From IMG/VR virus record IMGVR_UViG_2563366881_000003: a stretch of DNA of 43,633 nucleotides; one strand, given 5' to 3'. The notes beneath the pieces are model-generated. The model had not been told where the DNA came from and did no database searches. It was given only the letters and a program-made list of their open reading frames with translations. This stretch comes from a virus. Its lineage: Duplodnaviria; Heunggongvirae; Uroviricota; Caudoviricetes. Below, piece after piece: positions 1,419 through 38,400 of this stretch (position 1 is its first letter; every line of letters starts with the position of its first letter). A program made the translations under genes and the position numbers.

Positions 1419-2489
1419 TTATTTGATTTCAATTTTGTCCCACTCCCTGCCTCTGTCATCACGATACTGTGATGCCATGGTGTCCGACTTATGCCCGAGA
1501 AGATGTTGAGCAAACTTATCGCTTATCTGCTTCTCATAGAGTCTTGCAGACAAACTGCGCAACTCGTGAAAGGTAGGCGGATCCCCTTCGAAGGAAAGAC
1601 CTGATGCTTTTCGTGCGCGCATAAAATACCTTGATACTGTGCCGGATGAAAGCGGTTCGCGACGAGTAGATGCAATTATGGTTTCTCCGCCAAGAATCTC
1701 TTTGCATTTATCAAGTGTTTCCTTCATTGATATTCCGAGAGCATCAACATGCAATGCTGTTGGGATGGCAATTTTTACGCCTGTTTTGCTTTGCTCGACA
1801 TAAAGATATCCATCTACGATATCAGACCACTTCATTTCGCATAAATCACCAACTCGCTGCCCGGTAACAACAGCCAGTTCCATTGCAAGTCTAAGCCAAC
1901 ATGGTGATGATTCTGCTGCTTGATAAATTTTCAGGTATTCGTCAGCCGTAAGTCTTGATCTCCTTACCTCTGATTTTGCTGCGCGAGTGGCAGCGACAGG
2001 GTTTGTTGTTATATGGCCTTCAGCTATTGCCTCTCGGAATGCATCGCTCAGTGTTGATCTGATTAACTTGGCTGACGCCGCCTTGCCCTTGTCTATGTAT
2101 CCATTGAGCATTGCCGCAATTTCTTTGGTGGTGATGTCTTCAAGTGGAGCATCAGGCAGACCCCTCCTTATTGCTTTAATTTTGCTCATGTAATTTATGA
2201 GTGTCTTCTGCTTGATTCCTCTGCTGGCGAGGATTTTTTCGTAGCGATCAAGCCATGAATGTAACGTAACAGAATTATCACTGTTGATTCTTGCTGTCAG
2301 AGGCTTGTGTGTGTGTCCTGAGAATAACTCAATGTTGGCCTGTATAGCTTCAGTGATTGCTATCCTCCTGTCTCGGCCTAATCCAAACTCTTTACCCGTC
2401 CTTGGGTCCCTGTAGCAGTAATATCCATTGTTTCTTATATAAAGATTAGGGGGTAAATCCCGGCGCTCATGACTTCGCCTTCTTCCCAT
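1419..2489 (-). CDS. int: Integrase, tyrosine recombinase (lambda Int)
   Basis: 356-aa ORF matching recalled lambda Int (MGRRRSHERRDLPPNLYIRNNGYYCYRDPRTGKEF...); adjacent to att. Confidence 0.95.
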   Translation of the reverse strand: MGRRRSHERRDLPPNLYIRNNGYYCYRDPRTGKEFGLGRDRRIAITEAIQANIELFSGHTHKPLTARINSDNSVTLHSWLDRYEKILASRGIKQKTLINYMSKIKAIRRGLPDAPLEDITTKEIAAMLNGYIDKGKAASAKLIRSTLSDAFREAIAEGHITTNPVAATRAAKSEVRRSRLTADEYLKIYQAAESSPCWLRLAMELAVVTGQRVGDLCEMKWSDIVDGYLYVEQSKTGVKIAIPTALHVDALGISMKETLDKCKEILGGETIIASTRREPLSSGTVSRYFMRARKASGLSFEGDPPTFHELRSLSARLYEKQISDKFAQHLLGHKSDTMASQYRDDRGREWDKIEIK

Positions 2490-2685
2490 TTCTGATCCTC
2501 TTCAAAAGGCTACCTGTTACTGGTCGATTTAAGTCAACCTTTACCGCTGATTCGTGGAACAGATATTCTCTTCCGTCCTTAACCGGTGGTGGAAATATCC
2601 TGCACTCGCGTACCCATCGACGAACTGTTTCAAGGCTTCTTGGGCGTAGCTGGCGAGCGTTCCACTCCTGAAGTGTCAAGTACAT
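2467..2685 (-). CDS. xis: Excisionase (lambda Xis)
   Basis: Internal Met MYLTLQEWNARQ... gives 72 aa matching recalled lambda Xis; overlaps int start as in lambda. Confidence 0.9.
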   Translation of the reverse strand: MYLTLQEWNARQLRPRSLETVRRWVRECRIFPPPVKDGREYLFHESAVKVDLNRPVTGSLLKRIRNGKKAKS

Positions 2686-2733: not shown

Positions 2734-2791
2734 GATGGTAGGTCTGGATATCTTGAGAAATGAACAGGCCTCATCGAGTGTGAGGCTGTGG

Positions 2792-3136
2792 TTAGTCCTT
2801 GCGTAACTCGCTAATTCTTCTGTAAGTCTCTGGTGCTTTGTTTCCGTGTATCTTCATTTCAGACTTCAACAGAGCAACGAGGGAATCCCATTCGTTGAGG
2901 ATGCCTTTGAATGCCGGAACGCGCTTTGCAACCTTGTCGAATGAATCTCTGATTTCTGGGATCTGCTCAACAAGTGCAACGCATCGCCGGAAGTCTGCTG
3001 CGTCATGTGGAGCGCCGAAGTGATGACCATAGATATTCTTTTTCAGTCCACATGCGATTGAGGCAAGAGTTGCGCTACTGATGCCGACATCGCCAGTCGA
3101 TTGCCATTTCAAAACCTTCATAGCCAAATCTGACAT
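2792..3136 (-). CDS. Hypothetical early-left (ea/b-region) protein, 114 aa
   Basis: ORF in the leftward operon distal to the recombination genes; no family recognised. Confidence 0.5.
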   Translation of the reverse strand: MSDLAMKVLKWQSTGDVGISSATLASIACGLKKNIYGHHFGAPHDAADFRRCVALVEQIPEIRDSFDKVAKRVPAFKGILNEWDSLVALLKSEMKIHGNKAPETYRRISELRKD

Positions 3137-3208
3137 TTCTTGTCTCCATAAAACAAAACCCGCCGTAGCGAGTTCAGATAAAAGAAATCCCCGCGAGTGC
3201 GAGGATTG

Positions 3209-33546: not shown

Positions 33547-34929
33547 GTGGCAACTTGGCAACAGAGCATCAACTCCGGTGGTTTTCTGGCTGGAATTGGT
33601 GCGCAAAATGAGAATGCGCCAAAGGCGAGTGATGTAAATGAGACACTGGCTTACATTCGTCAGAATAATGAGGATGCCAGGCTTGGTCGCAACAATATCG
33701 GTCTGCAGGCTCTGCAGGGAATAACAAGCACAATGCAAGGATTGCAGCAATATGATCAGCAGAAGCAAGAGGCAGCATTCAGAAAGGATTATGCTTCTGC
33801 TATTCAATCAGGTGATCGACAGCAGGTTCGAGATCTGATGACCAAATATCCTCGTCAATTAGAGAAGATTCAGTCTGGTATGAAGTGGGCAGACGAAGAC
33901 CAGCGCAATTCTATCGGCACCTTAGCGGCTGGCGCACGCCTTGCGTCATCGTCTCCAGAAGCAATGCAATCATGGCTGCAAAACAACGCCAAGGAACTGA
34001 CTCGCGTCGGTGTTGACCCTAATAACGTTGCTCAGATGTATCAGCAGAACCCTTCAGGATTTGGTGAGTTTGTTGATCACCTTGGGATGGCTGCTCTTGG
34101 TCCGATTGATTACTTCAATGTTCAGGACAAGATGGTTGGTCGTGAAATTGACCGAGGCGGGCTGGCAGAGACAATCCGCAGCAATCAGGCTGGCGAGGCA
34201 CTTCAGGCGAGAGGGCAAAACCTTTCCTATCAGTCAGCAATGACTGGACACGGACTTGCAGCAGAAAGACTGGCACTTGATAAGCAGAAATTCGGTTTTG
34301 AAGTACAACAGGCACAAAAGAAGGCCGATGAACTTATTAATGCTGCGCCAAAACTATCCGTGAACATGGAAAAGGCTATAGAAAAATCAGCAGGTGATGC
34401 GGCAGCTAGTCGTAATGCTGCCGATTCAATGACAACGCTTGCTGACACGCTTGAGAAGGAGAAGCCAACTCCTGGTTTGTTCGGTAACGCTGAAAATATG
34501 TTCACTAAGCTTACGGGGCAAGATAACTACCTCCGAGATATGCGGATTAGATTCAACCAACTAGCCAATGCGCAGGCAACAAAGCTTCTCCCTCCCGGCC
34601 CTGCATCAGATAAGGATATTGAGTTTGCAAGGAAAGGCATTCCAAGCGAAACGGATAATCCAATGGTCATGGCTCGATGGTTAAGGGGTATGGCAAAAAT
34701 GGAAAGTAATAACGCGAAGTTCAACGAGTTTAGGTCAGAGTGGATGAGTGCAAATGGCAGCCCAGGACAATCTGATCGCAACCGAAACATCATGGGGATG
34801 GATGTTAAGAAGGGTGAATCATTGAACTCTGCGGCAAAACGTTTTCTTTCCTCAAGTTATGGCGATAGCCAACCTCAACAGCAATTGTCCGATGACGAAT
34901 TAATTAGCAAATATCTCGGAGGGCAGTAA
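33547..34929 (+). CDS. Ejection protein, P22 gp20-like
   Basis: 460 aa at the gp20 position. Confidence 0.65.
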
Positions 34930-37043
34930 TGGCCTATAGTCGTGAACAGTTGATGACGGCGTTAAGGAATGCTGATGCTGCCGGCGATACTGAGGGAGCA
35001 CGTCGCATTGCTCAGATGCTGTCTTCTGGTGATCAATCCACTCAAAACCAATCGCAGCCAGAAGAACAATCTCTGGTGGGAAAAGCTACTGACTGGCTCA
35101 CTGGTGGTCAAAGTGCAGGGCAAATTGCAGAACAGGCTGGTCGTGGTCTGGTAAACATACCATTTGACGTATTGCAGGGTGGCGCAAGTCTGATTAATGC
35201 AATCAGTCAGGGGCTTGGTGGCCCCAAGGTTTTGGATGATGTTTATCGCCCTGTCGATCGACCGACAGACCCTTACGCGCAAGCCGGTGAAACAATTGGT
35301 GGGTATCTCCTGCCAATTGGCACAGCGGCAAAAGCTGCTGGAGCGCCAGCAAAGCTCGCTGAAGATATCGGTTCCGCAGGAAACATGATTGCAGGTTCTC
35401 TTGCTGATTCTGCAAATCAGGAGGGCGACTTTGCACAAAATGCTGCCATTAACGGTGGTATCAATATTGGTGCTCAAGGCGTTCTTTCAGGTGTCGGGCG
35501 CGTTATTGCGCCAAGGGTTTCACAGGCTCTTGGTGGTGCAGCACTGAATTCTGCTAATGATGTTTCCAGGATGGCAAAGTCAGGTTCTGGGCGTCAGTCA
35601 ATTGCCAGTCAGGCCGCTAATGTGTCAGAAGATGTAGCAAAAGCGGCTGAGTCTGCTGGAATTGATATAAACGCATTAACACCAGGAATGCGATCTGGAA
35701 GTCGTGGAATTGCACAAGCCGAAGGCGCATTGGCATCAACACCAGGAATTGTTCAGGACGCCCATCAGGCAGCATTTAACGAAATATCATCAAAGTTAAG
35801 TCGAAACCTTGATGAATTTGGGGCCGCATCTGGAACGGCATCAGAAAAAAGTGCGGCTATAAAACAAAGGATTCTTCAAAATCTTGATCAGATGAAGGAT
35901 GCCGAGCGCGCGGCATGGGATGACGTGCGGTCAACAATGCCAAATCAAAAAGCAAGAATGCTAAATGGTAATGCCGTTATTCAGGCAGAGCGATCTGCTG
36001 GCATACCGCTTACTCCTGAAATGAAACAGTTTGTTCAGGCAAACAATCAAGGTGGAGTAACATTTGATGGCATGAAAGCATGGAGAGCGAAATTTGCTGA
36101 TGCGGAGCAAAAATATAAGCGTAGCGGAGAGGCAAATGCGGCAAGGAGAGCAGGGGAAATACGCCGGGCAATTACTGATGATATGCGCACAATGGCGGAA
36201 AACGGCGGATTTCTTGATGACTGGCAAAAAGCTAATGATCTGTCTAAAGCGAGGTTATCAGCACAAGAGAATGCAGAGTCTGTTTTCGGGCGTGATTTGG
36301 CAACAGATGCACTGATTACGAATGGAGTAAAATCCCTTCAATCATCGTCAGCTAAAGGTCTTAATGGTCCTGCTGGATTCCATTCTATGATCCGCGCGCT
36401 GCCAGAATCAGAGCGTGTTCCTGCTATATCATCAATGTTGCAGGATGCTATCTCGCATGGTGTACGTGGTGGCAAATCTGATGCAGCAGGAATTAACCAT
36501 ATCGCAGAGATACTCACGCCACAAAATGTAAAAGCCATTAGCCGATATTCCTCAGAGCTTGGAAGAATTGCTGATGCATATGGCACTCTTGCAAGAGCAG
36601 CAGTGAAACCTCAGCAGCATATTGAAAGAACAGGGCGAACTGCCAATGTACTACGTGATCTGGATGCTGGTTTATCCAACGTTACATCAACAGTGTTAAA
36701 TGCAATTGCCAATTCAACATCAGGTGCCATTGTTGGTGGAGCAGGAGGAGGGGGCGTTGCTGGCGCTGCCGCTGGCGCTTTAGTTGGCGCAGGGTTAAAA
36801 GGCGCTGTATCTAAAATTGCCACCACACGTAGTGGTCGGTATGCGATAGAGAAAGCAGTTCAGGAAGCCACTAAAGCAGTAAGAACCGGCGGAAGCAAAG
36901 AAGCATTAGCTGCGGCGGAACGCAGATTTATGGCAAATAAGGCCGCTGTAAAAGCGATACGTGATACAGTCGGAAACGAAGAGTTTCAGCGATTAGCGAG
37001 AGCTGGGATTGTGGCATCGCTAAGCGGAATGGCACAGGAGTAA
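34929..37043 (+). CDS. Ejection protein, P22 gp16-like
   Basis: 704 aa at the gp16 position, Gly/Ala-rich C-terminal region. Confidence 0.65.
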
Positions 37044-37138
37044 TTAGTCGTCCACGGATGGATTGATCTTATCTCGTGCTTCACATTTGGTTGTTTTGTC
37101 ATTAGGATGTTTCCGGTTTTTTAAATATGGAAATTGAT

Positions 37139-37429
37139 ATGAAGAGGCTCATTGCGGTTGCTTGTTTTAATGTCTTTCTTTTATCTGGTTGTGCAACATC
37201 TTCTAAAACATACGCCCCTGATGGTAGAGAAGCATACACTATTGATTGCTCAGGTCTGGGGGGATCATGGGGGATGTGCCTAACTAAGGCTGGCGATTTG
37301 TGTGGAAGCAAAGGATATGATGTACTGACATCAGCTGGAGATAAAGGATTTATAGCATCAGCAAACCCCGAAATGGCGTTTGCAGGCAATACCATCTCAA
37401 GGAATTTACTCATCGCTTGTAAAAAGTGA
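37139..37429 (+). CDS. Moron lipoprotein, 96 aa
   Basis: Signal peptide with lipobox LLSGC; Cys-rich mature region. Confidence 0.55.
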   Translation: MKRLIAVACFNVFLLSGCATSSKTYAPDGREAYTIDCSGLGGSWGMCLTKAGDLCGSKGYDVLTSAGDKGFIASANPEMAFAGNTISRNLLIACKK

Positions 37430-37446
37430 ACTAGCGCCATGGATGG

Positions 37447-37824
37447 CTATCTTATTGATTTACCATAATTATACATCTCAACATGAGCGCTGGCATACGC
37501 TCTCGCTGAATGATCATCAATTAAAGCTTTCTTTGCAGCTTTATAGTTATATTCCCATAATAAATTTGTATCATATGACTGATTTTCAATTCCTTTTTCA
37601 CAAGTAAATATCAATCCGTTTATTGTTGATATTTCAACCGGGCTAATTTTCCCATCGGTTCCACTGCGCAATCCTGAGAGGATAAGGTCTCTATCACCTG
37701 TAAGTAACTTGCGATAATAAACATCTGCTGCCTTTGCAGAGCATTCTGCACTAGATGCAAAAGATGCATTAGATATTATCAAAAGCATACCAATAAGAAT
37801 TAACTTTAGGGCGCTAACCTTCAT
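37447..37824 (-). CDS. Secreted (signal-peptide) protein, mnt-linked, about 125 aa
   Basis: N-terminal signal peptide MKVSALKLILIGMLLIISNASFASS; start overlaps mnt stop. Confidence 0.5.
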   Translation of the reverse strand: MKVSALKLILIGMLLIISNASFASSAECSAKAADVYYRKLLTGDRDLILSGLRSGTDGKISPVEISTINGLIFTCEKGIENQSYDTNLLWEYNYKAAKKALIDDHSARAYASAHVEMYNYGKSIR

Positions 37825-38071
37825 TGTTCTTGCCATAAATTCTTTTCAGTGTATCGAATACCATTTTTTTTACAATTTCAGACTGCTCATCAGCAATTTT
37901 CTCAGCTTCGTTGCGATAACCAACTACAGGAGATGGTTTTGATAGAGCGTCTTGGACGATTTGCAACAGCTCGGAGTTCATAGATCTCCCATTCGCCTCT
38001 GCTCTGAATTTCAATTTTTCTCTCACTTCCAAAGGCATGCGGAAGTTAAAGTGCGGATCATCTCTAGCCAT
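37814..38071 (-). CDS. mnt: Mnt repressor (P22 immI)
   Basis: MARDDPHFNFRMPLEVREKLKFRAEANGRSMNSELLQIVQDALSKPSP... matches recalled P22 Mnt. Confidence 0.9.
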   Translation of the reverse strand: MARDDPHFNFRMPLEVREKLKFRAEANGRSMNSELLQIVQDALSKPSPVVGYRNEAEKIADEQSEIVKKMVFDTLKRIYGKNNEG

Positions 38072-38093: not shown

Positions 38094-38145
38094 TTGACAT
38101 GATAGAAGCAGTCTACTATATTCTCAATAGGTCCACCGTGGACCT
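38094..38145. promoter_or_regulatory. Pant/Pmnt control region: Pant TTGACA-17-TATATT, Oarc at 38099-38119, Omnt palindrome AGGTCCACCGTGGACCT at 38129-38145
   Basis: Oarc and Omnt match recalled P22 operators (one central change in each). Confidence 0.8.
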
Positions 38146-38161: not shown

Positions 38162-38323
38162 ATGAAAGGAATGAGCAAGATGCCGCAGTTCAATTTGCGG
38201 TGGCCTAAAGAGGTATTGGATTTGGTACGCAAGGTGGCGGAAGAGAATGGTCGGTCTGTTAACTCTGAGATTTATCAGAGAGTAATGGAAAGCTTTAAGA
38301 AGGAAGGGCGCATTGGCGCGTAA
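38162..38323 (+). CDS. arc: Arc repressor (P22 immI)
   Basis: [53 protein letters not shown], 53 aa, matches recalled P22 Arc. Confidence 0.95.
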
Positions 38324-38324
38324 A

Positions 38325-38400
38325 GTTGAAGCCCCAACTGCGGGAACAGTCAGGGCTTCTGTTGTCAGTAAATCCGTGGAGAAAAACCAACATGAATAGT
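38325..38400 (-). ncRNA. sar-like antisense RNA covering the ant ribosome-binding region (candidate)
   Basis: Arc-ant intercistronic hairpin GAAGCCC...GGGCTTC at 38330-38361; P22 has sar here. Confidence 0.35.

Follow-up and report, generated by a model that had tools for sequence, protein, structure and literature searches.

What do P22-like phages carry at the place of the superinfection-exclusion gene sieA when sieA itself is missing, and what might this cargo do for a prophage or its host? The question is raised by the window studied here, the whole of a 43,633-nucleotide stretch of viral DNA (IMG/VR record IMGVR_UViG_2563366881_000003) that is a complete P22-like (Lederbergvirus) prophage of Escherichia coli. 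Two open reading frames (ORFs), here called ORF-A and ORF-B, fill the stretch that in P22 holds sieA, PsieA, t-mnt and orf59a, where P22 sieA lies beside gene 16, convergent with it and upstream of mnt-arc-ant. An earlier note on this DNA had described the two products as a candidate exclusion or conversion pair: a Cys-rich lipoprotein with the lipobox LLSGC on the plus strand, and a signal-peptide protein on the minus strand whose start overlaps the mnt stop. We find both ORFs at the P22 sieA position with export signals recognizable by sequence rules, and the lipobox, the Cys-rich mature part and the overlap with mnt are all borne out; the notion of a pair is not. Our best explanation is that ORF-A and ORF-B are independent accessory (moron) genes at the sieA place whose most likely function is lysogenic conversion of the cell envelope, a reading that we favour with some reserve. 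The features concerned are as follows.

37080–37108, plus strand: sigma-70-like promoter candidate for ORF-A (TTCACA–17 nt–TAGGAT), with 9/12 matches in a consensus scan
37127–37429, plus strand: ORF-A, a small lipoprotein precursor of 100 aa (phrog_5685, E=1e-51), with its lipobox at 37178–37192 and a mature part of 79 aa
37447–37836, minus strand: ORF-B, a predicted Sec-exported periplasmic helical protein of 129 aa (phrog_32609, E=3e-85), with a signal peptide at about 37747–37836 and a mature part of about 102 aa containing two invariant Cys
37814–37836, minus strand: overlap of the mnt 3′-end with the start of ORF-B (mnt stop at 37814–37816; ORF-B ATG at 37836 or 37824, giving an overlap of 23 or 11 nt), a candidate for translational coupling

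The translation of ORF-A (MEIDMKRLIAVACFNVFLLSGCATSS) has the sequence characters of a bacterial lipoprotein, as its signal joins a basic n-region (MKR), a hydrophobic h-region (LIAVACFNVFL) and a lipobox (LSG before the lipid-bearing C), and a PROSITE-type lipobox pattern matches ACFNVFLLSGC. The phrog_5685 match covers residues 5–100, so that the homology is full-length, and because the homologues, the PHROG profile and a sister gene in phage epsilon34 (see below) all begin at the second ATG, the true start is probably 37139 (M5) and not the annotated 37127. The mature protein contains five Cys; the four besides the lipid Cys are invariant across 19 homologues, 17 of which also keep the lipobox Cys. 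Position +2 is occupied by Ala in ORF-A and by Ala, Val, Thr or Ser in those homologues whose lipobox is intact, and since Ala at this position is no retention signal under the +2 rule, ORF-A would be expected to be lipidated and sorted by the Lol system to the outer membrane. AlphaFold yields a moderate beta-beta-alpha-beta-beta model (pLDDT 70).

ORF-A has relatives both in other P22-like elements and far from any phage. In a tblastn search against phage records it is 64% identical over 96% of its length to orf62 of Salmonella phages L, ST64T, ST104, SPN9CC and others; orf62 lies between gene 16 and mnt, as ORF-A does, and is evidently its orthologue. The gene stands directly 3′ of gene 16 in P22-like prophages of E. 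coli DLL7555, the Logan assembly L005, Klebsiella aerogenes, Salmonella and Serratia, as well as in phage L, where, unlike the window, the 836-bp moron holds besides orf62 only a poorly conserved mnt and lacks arc, ant and ORF-B. In Serratia sp. UGAL515B_01 (L006 6001–6288) the homologue is inverted relative to gene 16, convergent with it like sieA and ORF-B, and must therefore have a promoter of its own that is not tied to late read-through. An orf62 allele found in Salmonella, including Typhi (L016 6001–6300, L017, L018; P0016, 94 member sequences), has the lipobox Cys replaced by Arg (FLAGC to FLAGR) in a protein otherwise essentially that of phage L; lipidation is then impossible, and the gene may have been inactivated in that lineage.

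More widely, a profile search recovered 580 relatives of ORF-A at E≤0.01, mostly of 93–97 aa, and a scan of species-representative genomes placed the family at 41 loci in Gamma-, Beta- and Alphaproteobacteria, Desulfobacterota, Nitrospirota and others, all 41 of them with the motif CSG...W(G)xC..KAG(D/E)LCG.(K/R)GY...CK. One member has proS, relA and an FKBP isomerase gene for neighbours, a non-phage chromosomal context. In an unrelated lambdoid prophage of Cupriavidus sp. DB3 (L014 5076–7880), a relative with 58% identity stands two genes downstream of a CI-like repressor gene on the same strand, a rexAB-like moron position, and is followed by HipA_2 and DUF3037 genes. A conserved chromosomal neighbourhood for the family was considered and rejected, as the 63 immediate neighbour proteins from 35 loci share no family. 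To judge from this distribution, ORF-A was captured by phage from a general, free-standing family of small lipoproteins of Proteobacteria and is not a phage-specific invention.

ORF-B presents the opposite picture in its range. Its signal (MKVSALK-LILIGMLLIIS-NASFA/SSA) runs from a basic n-region through a hydrophobic core of 13 residues to an SFA/SSA cleavage motif, beyond which no further hydrophobic stretch follows, as expected of a substrate of Sec and signal peptidase I; an A-x-A-like motif before the invariant Cys is kept in the homologues. Across ten homologues the signal peptide varies freely and the mature part averages 71% identity with two invariant Cys. The phrog_32609 match (E=3.1e-85) spans residues 5–129, again full-length homology, and AlphaFold gives a confident all-helical model (pLDDT 86). 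The family is small, with only 10 clusters at 90% identity among 5.8 billion proteins and only six clusters (50% identity) in an exhaustive profile search of 1.84 billion representatives. The ORF-B loci examined (ten loci in seven distinct arrangements) all belong to P22-like prophages or phage: the window and its near-identical copies, L005, Pluralibacter L008, Salmonella L009–L011, L012, L020 and Salmonella phage MS2 LVA, the sole sequenced phage with the gene. Even the most divergent homologue (L020, 32% identity) lies in a P22-like prophage.

The position of ORF-B is just as constrained: the gene always lies in the interval bounded by gene 16 and the tailspike gene and, in every locus that includes gene 16, is oriented opposite to it. 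In four lineages it stands directly behind mnt on the same strand: the window (11–23 nt overlap), L012 (4-nt ATGA overlap), L005 (42-nt gap) and MS2 LVA (about 24 nt). In the other lineages unrelated genes (KilA-N, Bro-N, HicA/DUF1902) intervene between ORF-B and mnt. Among these, Salmonella prophages carry a HicA toxin gene and a DUF1902 (HicB-like) gene there (L010 5005–5541; L009 5206–5859), and in L009 and L011 a single 217-aa ORF appears to combine both by fusion or merger. Two ideas about the origin or partner of ORF-B were rejected. It does not track one type of gp16 or the SLT domain of gp16, as it accompanies gp16 proteins at 24–100% identity to that of the window, with and without SLT, and P22 orf59a, the gene behind mnt in P22, is not a remnant of it (hhalign probability 0.15%).

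The ratio of non-synonymous to synonymous substitution (dN/dS) is 0.03–0.38 for both genes wherever dS is estimable, that is, not saturated. Given this low dN/dS, the PHROG matches and the variable signal peptides joined to conserved mature parts, ORF-A and ORF-B are evidently real conserved genes under purifying selection rather than chance ORFs. They also appear to be independent moron genes that form no obligate pair, because they occur mostly apart (each is found without the other in at least five lineages, and both together, among the loci examined, only in the window lineage and L005), lie on opposite strands with different promoters, and have very different phylogenetic ranges.

The slot that they share is known for change. 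In P22-like phages the region from gene 16 to the tailspike gene is the fast-changing ‘ant moron’, the home of sieA in P22 (Villafane et al., 2008; PMC2629481), whose content turns over rapidly and in some phages includes degraded genes (PMC2629481). The stretch studied here has the characters of this region, being bounded by the homologues of genes 16 and 9, non-morphogenetic, and variable in content among close relatives; the moron content differs between P22, epsilon34, L, LF82, DLL7555 and the other loci compared. Envelope-targeted cargo recurs in it: SieA, ORF-A, ORF-B, the epsilon34 gp15-type lipoprotein, the LF82_138 lipoprotein, a YobH-family protein and hkcB/gp14, a membrane-anchored coiled-coil protein. 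P22-type SieA was found by tblastn with P22 SieA as query neither in the window nor in any ORF-A or ORF-B locus, and sieA is present in only 22 of 66 sequenced P22-like phages (PMC10883804). In E. coli DLL7555 (L003 4398–5422), ORF-A is followed by YobH-family and Panacea-domain (antitoxin-like) proteins in place of ORF-B.

How such cargo may be exchanged is suggested by the 5′-end of ORF-A. About 110 bp, comprising the promoter site, the leader and the first signal-peptide codons, are common to ORF-A and the epsilon34 gene 15-type lipoprotein gene, which occurs in about 100 E. coli genomes. When the upstream regions of epsilon34 gene 15, NRG857C and LF82_139 are aligned with that of ORF-A, the CTTCAC and TTA.GAT positions are invariant and the spacer has diverged; the diverged LF82 copy likewise keeps both hexamers and not the spacer. 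The cassette (CTTCAC...TTAGGAT...GGAAATTGATATGAAGAGG..., encoding MKRxI...LSGCAT) lies at 37079–37197 in the window, L001 2990–3160, L013 2995–3165 and L064 2660–2850, and carries two unrelated lipoprotein bodies, that of ORF-A and the PEGA-like epsilon34 gp15/LF82_139 type (139 aa). The epsilon34 gene 15/LF82_139 type (phrog_6823) thus resembles ORF-A in standing on the plus strand directly after the ejection genes, in its hexamers and 5′ leader and in a near-identical signal peptide (MKRII...LSGCAT), and differs from it in an unrelated mature domain within a protein of about 140 aa that has a weak PEGA-like match (E=0.004); hhalign of the two types aligns mainly the signal peptide. Because the similarity stops inside the signal peptide, it suggests a swap of cargo by recombination at the 5′ cassette. 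One cassette on unrelated lipoprotein bodies, together with the changing envelope cargo of the slot, suggests modular swapping of envelope-modifying genes.

The sister gene also offers a view of expression. In prophage Gally of E. coli LF82 (L064), LF82_139 (2775–3194, plus strand) is accompanied by a second lipoprotein gene, LF82_138 (2155–2640, minus strand; lipobox LLAGC; phrog_6067), and the two are among the few prophage genes strongly induced in Dulbecco’s modified Eagle medium (DMEM) and in macrophages (PMC9928086). Expressed as log2 fragments per kilobase per million (fpkm), LF82_139 stands at 6.2 and 4.8 in lysogeny broth (LB), at about 10 in DMEM and at 9.4–11 in macrophages (PMC9928086, supplementary table), with the adjacent injection genes at about 2.5–4 throughout and the C2 repressor at 8.9–12 over all conditions (about 10–12 in DMEM and macrophages); LF82_138 goes from 6 in LB up to 10.3 in macrophages, and mnt from 3.7 to about 9 (PMC9928086). 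By the LB criterion of that study, Gally was listed as having no morons (PMC9928086). Since LF82_139 is transcribed in a lysogen while the adjacent injection genes stay low, we infer by homology that the type of promoter before ORF-A is active in a lysogen independently of late transcription and in a condition-dependent manner, and ORF-A itself would then be made in the lysogen, probably only under some conditions. It is probably also transcribed late in lytic growth, because a search for intrinsic terminators found no convincing one between gene 16 and ORF-A and late transcription must traverse this region to reach the tailspike gene (PMC2629481).

For ORF-B, a consensus scan found no promoter-like site of its own on its strand, and because its start also overlaps mnt, it is predicted to share the Pmnt transcript with mnt and to be translationally coupled to that gene. 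In the P22 lysogen Mnt acts as maintenance repressor of ant (PMC2629481), and ORF-B would be made whenever the prophage maintains Mnt.

Taken as a mechanism, these predictions would run as follows. The ORF-A precursor, made from its own sigma-70 promoter in the lysogen as conditions allow and then by late read-through in lytic growth, would be lipidated and passed by Lol to the outer membrane, there to display a domain of about 8 kDa with a beta-beta-alpha-beta-beta fold stapled by two disulfides. ORF-B, present for as long as Mnt is maintained, would pass through Sec into the periplasm, a four-helix protein of 11 kDa with a single disulfide, and might act there on the periplasmic stage of podophage DNA delivery, whether on the ejection-protein conduit, the needle or the murein hydrolases of the virion. 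We hypothesize that exclusion is more credible for ORF-B than for ORF-A. Its strict confinement to the sieA slot and its coupling to the lysogeny repressor favour superinfection exclusion at this stage as the single most likely function of ORF-B, an assignment that is nevertheless tentative. A bolder and more doubtful version is that ORF-B founds a new class of exclusion factor, a soluble periplasmic product of the mnt operon that binds the gp7/gp20/gp16 conduit, the needle or a murein hydrolase, halts DNA delivery and so replaces SieA functionally. For ORF-A, the broad chromosomal distribution of its family and its presence in phage L argue for a general role at the outer membrane (receptor access, stress tolerance or host interaction), which is more likely than a direct anti-phage role, itself improbable.

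Several points weigh against this reading. Phage L has an ORF-A orthologue, yet the paper on the L genome lists no known exclusion genes and finds this in accord with earlier genetics, an argument from silence. The absence of sieA from ORF-B loci is weak evidence, since so few P22-like phages have sieA in any case. Expression of either gene in the lysogen is a prediction, and in LF82 both the sister gene and mnt hardly exceed background in LB, their rise being confined to DMEM or macrophages (PMC9928086). Lastly, the convergent stops of ORF-A and ORF-B are 17 nt apart (37430–37446) with no convincing bidirectional terminator between them; with no terminator found downstream of either gene, the two transcripts would overlap as antisense. 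In phage L a bidirectional terminator is annotated between orf62 and mnt.

The most serious rival, for both genes, is a role in host fitness or virulence apart from phage defence, such as envelope stress tolerance or survival in serum or macrophages, in the manner of lambda Bor or prophage SodC; we consider it possible, if on the unlikely side. It would accord with the many non-phage chromosomal contexts of the ORF-A family among Proteobacteria, with the 6–40-fold induction in macrophages of LF82 genes of the same region (two other lipoprotein genes and mnt), and with the blood and urinary origin of the source strains. However, ORF-B is restricted to the sieA position of P22-like prophages, deletion of the whole Gally prophage left survival of LF82 in macrophages unchanged, and ORF-A has no detectable homology to lambda Bor/Iss (no match to Pfam Lambda_Bor, PF06291, at E≤1; hhalign probability 45%, on the signal peptide only).

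It is decidedly improbable that the two proteins form a functional pair, an outer-membrane anchor and its periplasmic partner that together mask a receptor or block injection. The genes are adjacent and convergent, 17 nt apart, and have been inherited together in the window and L005, which are deeply diverged lineages (81% and 70% protein identity, dS saturated), but each also occurs alone in at least five lineages, they are read from opposite strands and different promoters, and the ORF-A family extends far beyond phages as the ORF-B family does not. We give equally little credence to a lytic role for ORF-A like that of T5 Llp, in which the late read-through product would modify the outer membrane of the dying cell and spare progeny virions from binding to debris or vesicles. 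The gene is co-directional with the late operon with no terminator after gene 16, and late transcription crosses the region toward the tailspike gene (PMC2629481); against this, the Serratia copy is inverted relative to gene 16, ORF-A has its own conserved promoter, and a small lipoprotein would not be expected to mask the O-antigen, to which P22-like phages bind first. That one or both ORFs are decaying, functionless remnants is hardly credible, since the rapid flux and degraded genes of the region (PMC2629481) and the Typhi variant of ORF-A without a lipobox Cys are outweighed by dN/dS values of 0.03–0.38, frames intact across genera, invariant Cys and motifs, and signal peptides that vary and still look functional.

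The reading of ORF-A and ORF-B as separate envelope-converting morons is set in a P22-like immunity region. The order 16, mnt, arc, sar, ant and tailspike in the window is that of the P22 immI layout, with the following features.

34929–37043, plus strand: gene 16 homologue (last ejection or DNA-transfer protein), the left border of the ant moron, annotated in RefSeq as ‘DNA transfer protein’ on a 99.5%-identical E. coli copy
37814–38071, minus strand: mnt repressor gene (Pfam Arc, E=2.5e-28; Repressor_Mnt, E=1.6e-16), 86% identical to P22 Mnt
38094–38127: overlapping divergent promoters Pant (plus strand, 38094–38122) and Pmnt (minus strand, 38127–38099), with 11/12 and 10/12 matches in a promoter scan
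38162–38323, plus strand: arc repressor gene (Pfam Arc, E=1e-30)
38324–38391, minus strand: sar antisense RNA between arc and ant (Rfam RF00262, full length, 92.3 bits, E=1.2e-19)
38392–39294, plus strand: ant antirepressor gene, from the RefSeq annotation of the identical E. coli locus
39395–41383, plus strand: tailspike gene (gene 9 homologue; RefSeq ‘Phage head-binding domain-containing protein’), the right border of the moron and last gene of the prophage

The Pant/Pmnt region contains two operator-like inverted repeats, I1 and I2, in the layout annotated in P22, and because a full-length sar sits between arc and ant, immI appears to be intact and functional in this prophage. Gene 16 counterparts of most related loci are matched by Pfam Phage_P22_gp16, the exceptions being L007 and L009–L011. 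Two human E. coli isolates have segment 37050–37850 in their chromosomes at 99.3–99.5% identity, and only 2 of 5,426 complete E. coli genomes carry it in full; the isolates with the near-identical element are of blood and urinary origin. Host DNA starts directly after the tailspike gene. Judged by eye, an ORF past the prophage end at 41918–42394 (minus strand) resembles the YbhB/PEBP family, and one at 42503–43633 (plus strand), which reaches the last base of the window, resembles a TnpB-like protein of the IS200/IS605 family.

The hypervariable ant moron was already known (PMC2629481), the orthologue of ORF-A was annotated as a putative lipoprotein, and ORF-B was a member of a PHROG. What is new here is the definition of the two families, the positional rule for ORF-B, the evidence for independence, the shared promoter and signal-peptide cassette, and the indirect evidence on expression. 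About one-third of sequenced P22-like phages have sieA, and ORF-A and ORF-B offer two concrete candidates for the cargo of the slot in others. Being strictly confined to the sieA position, ORF-B is well suited to probing how podophage DNA delivery proceeds in the periplasm, a stage that is poorly understood; should phage infection prove indifferent to both genes, the induction of the LF82 sister genes in macrophages would point to roles in host interaction in clinical E. coli.

How do the two proteins compare with known systems? Pfam, NCBIfam and PADLOC scans of both gave nothing above threshold (in PADLOC-DB no match for ORF-A and one meaningless 11-bit match for ORF-B), profile searches of PDB sequences returned chance matches only (E>0.2), and literature searches found no functional study of either. 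Cor of phages phi80, N15 and HK022 and Llp of T5 are outer-membrane lipoproteins that inactivate FhuA. ORF-A is like them in being a small phage-encoded lipoprotein with, in its case, a predicted outer-membrane location. The homology to Cor- or Llp-type lipoproteins that the earlier note had proposed to look for did not materialize, as the Cor family (phrog_1119) matches only the signal peptide (residues 5–27, E=0.082) and not the mature domain, and T5 Llp has no sequence or fold similarity to ORF-A. ORF-B, too, resembles neither Cor, Llp nor Bor in sequence or fold.

SieA of P22 is the natural comparison for ORF-B. Both occupy the same slot in the same orientation, within the gene 16-to-mnt segment, convergent with gene 16 and on the mnt strand, and SieA is expressed from the prophage and located in the envelope, as predicted for ORF-B. 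In build they differ: SieA, a polytopic protein, crosses the inner membrane three or four times, lacks a signal peptide and is transcribed from its own promoter, whereas ORF-B is predicted to be a soluble, exported, mnt-coupled four-helix protein without sequence similarity to it. ORF-A and ORF-B each have a single N-terminal hydrophobic segment, and the FxRYPxEAxxFNK motif is absent from both, so that neither belongs to SieA types A–C. SieA blocks the gp16/gp20 DNA-delivery conduit (PMC10883804).

A soluble factor acting in the periplasm would more closely resemble the Spackle protein (Sp) of T4. Spackle is a small, Sec-exported, all-helical, disulfide-containing periplasmic protein that inhibits the tail lysozyme of the incoming phage. 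It has no sequence or fold match to ORF-B, and because ORF-B accompanies gp16 with and without the SLT domain, no obvious lysozyme target can be tied to it; Spackle is moreover made by a lytic phage during infection, whereas ORF-B would be made from a prophage repressor operon. As a Sec-exported, helical, disulfide-containing protein of the periplasm, Spackle nonetheless provides the best mechanistic analogy for ORF-B.

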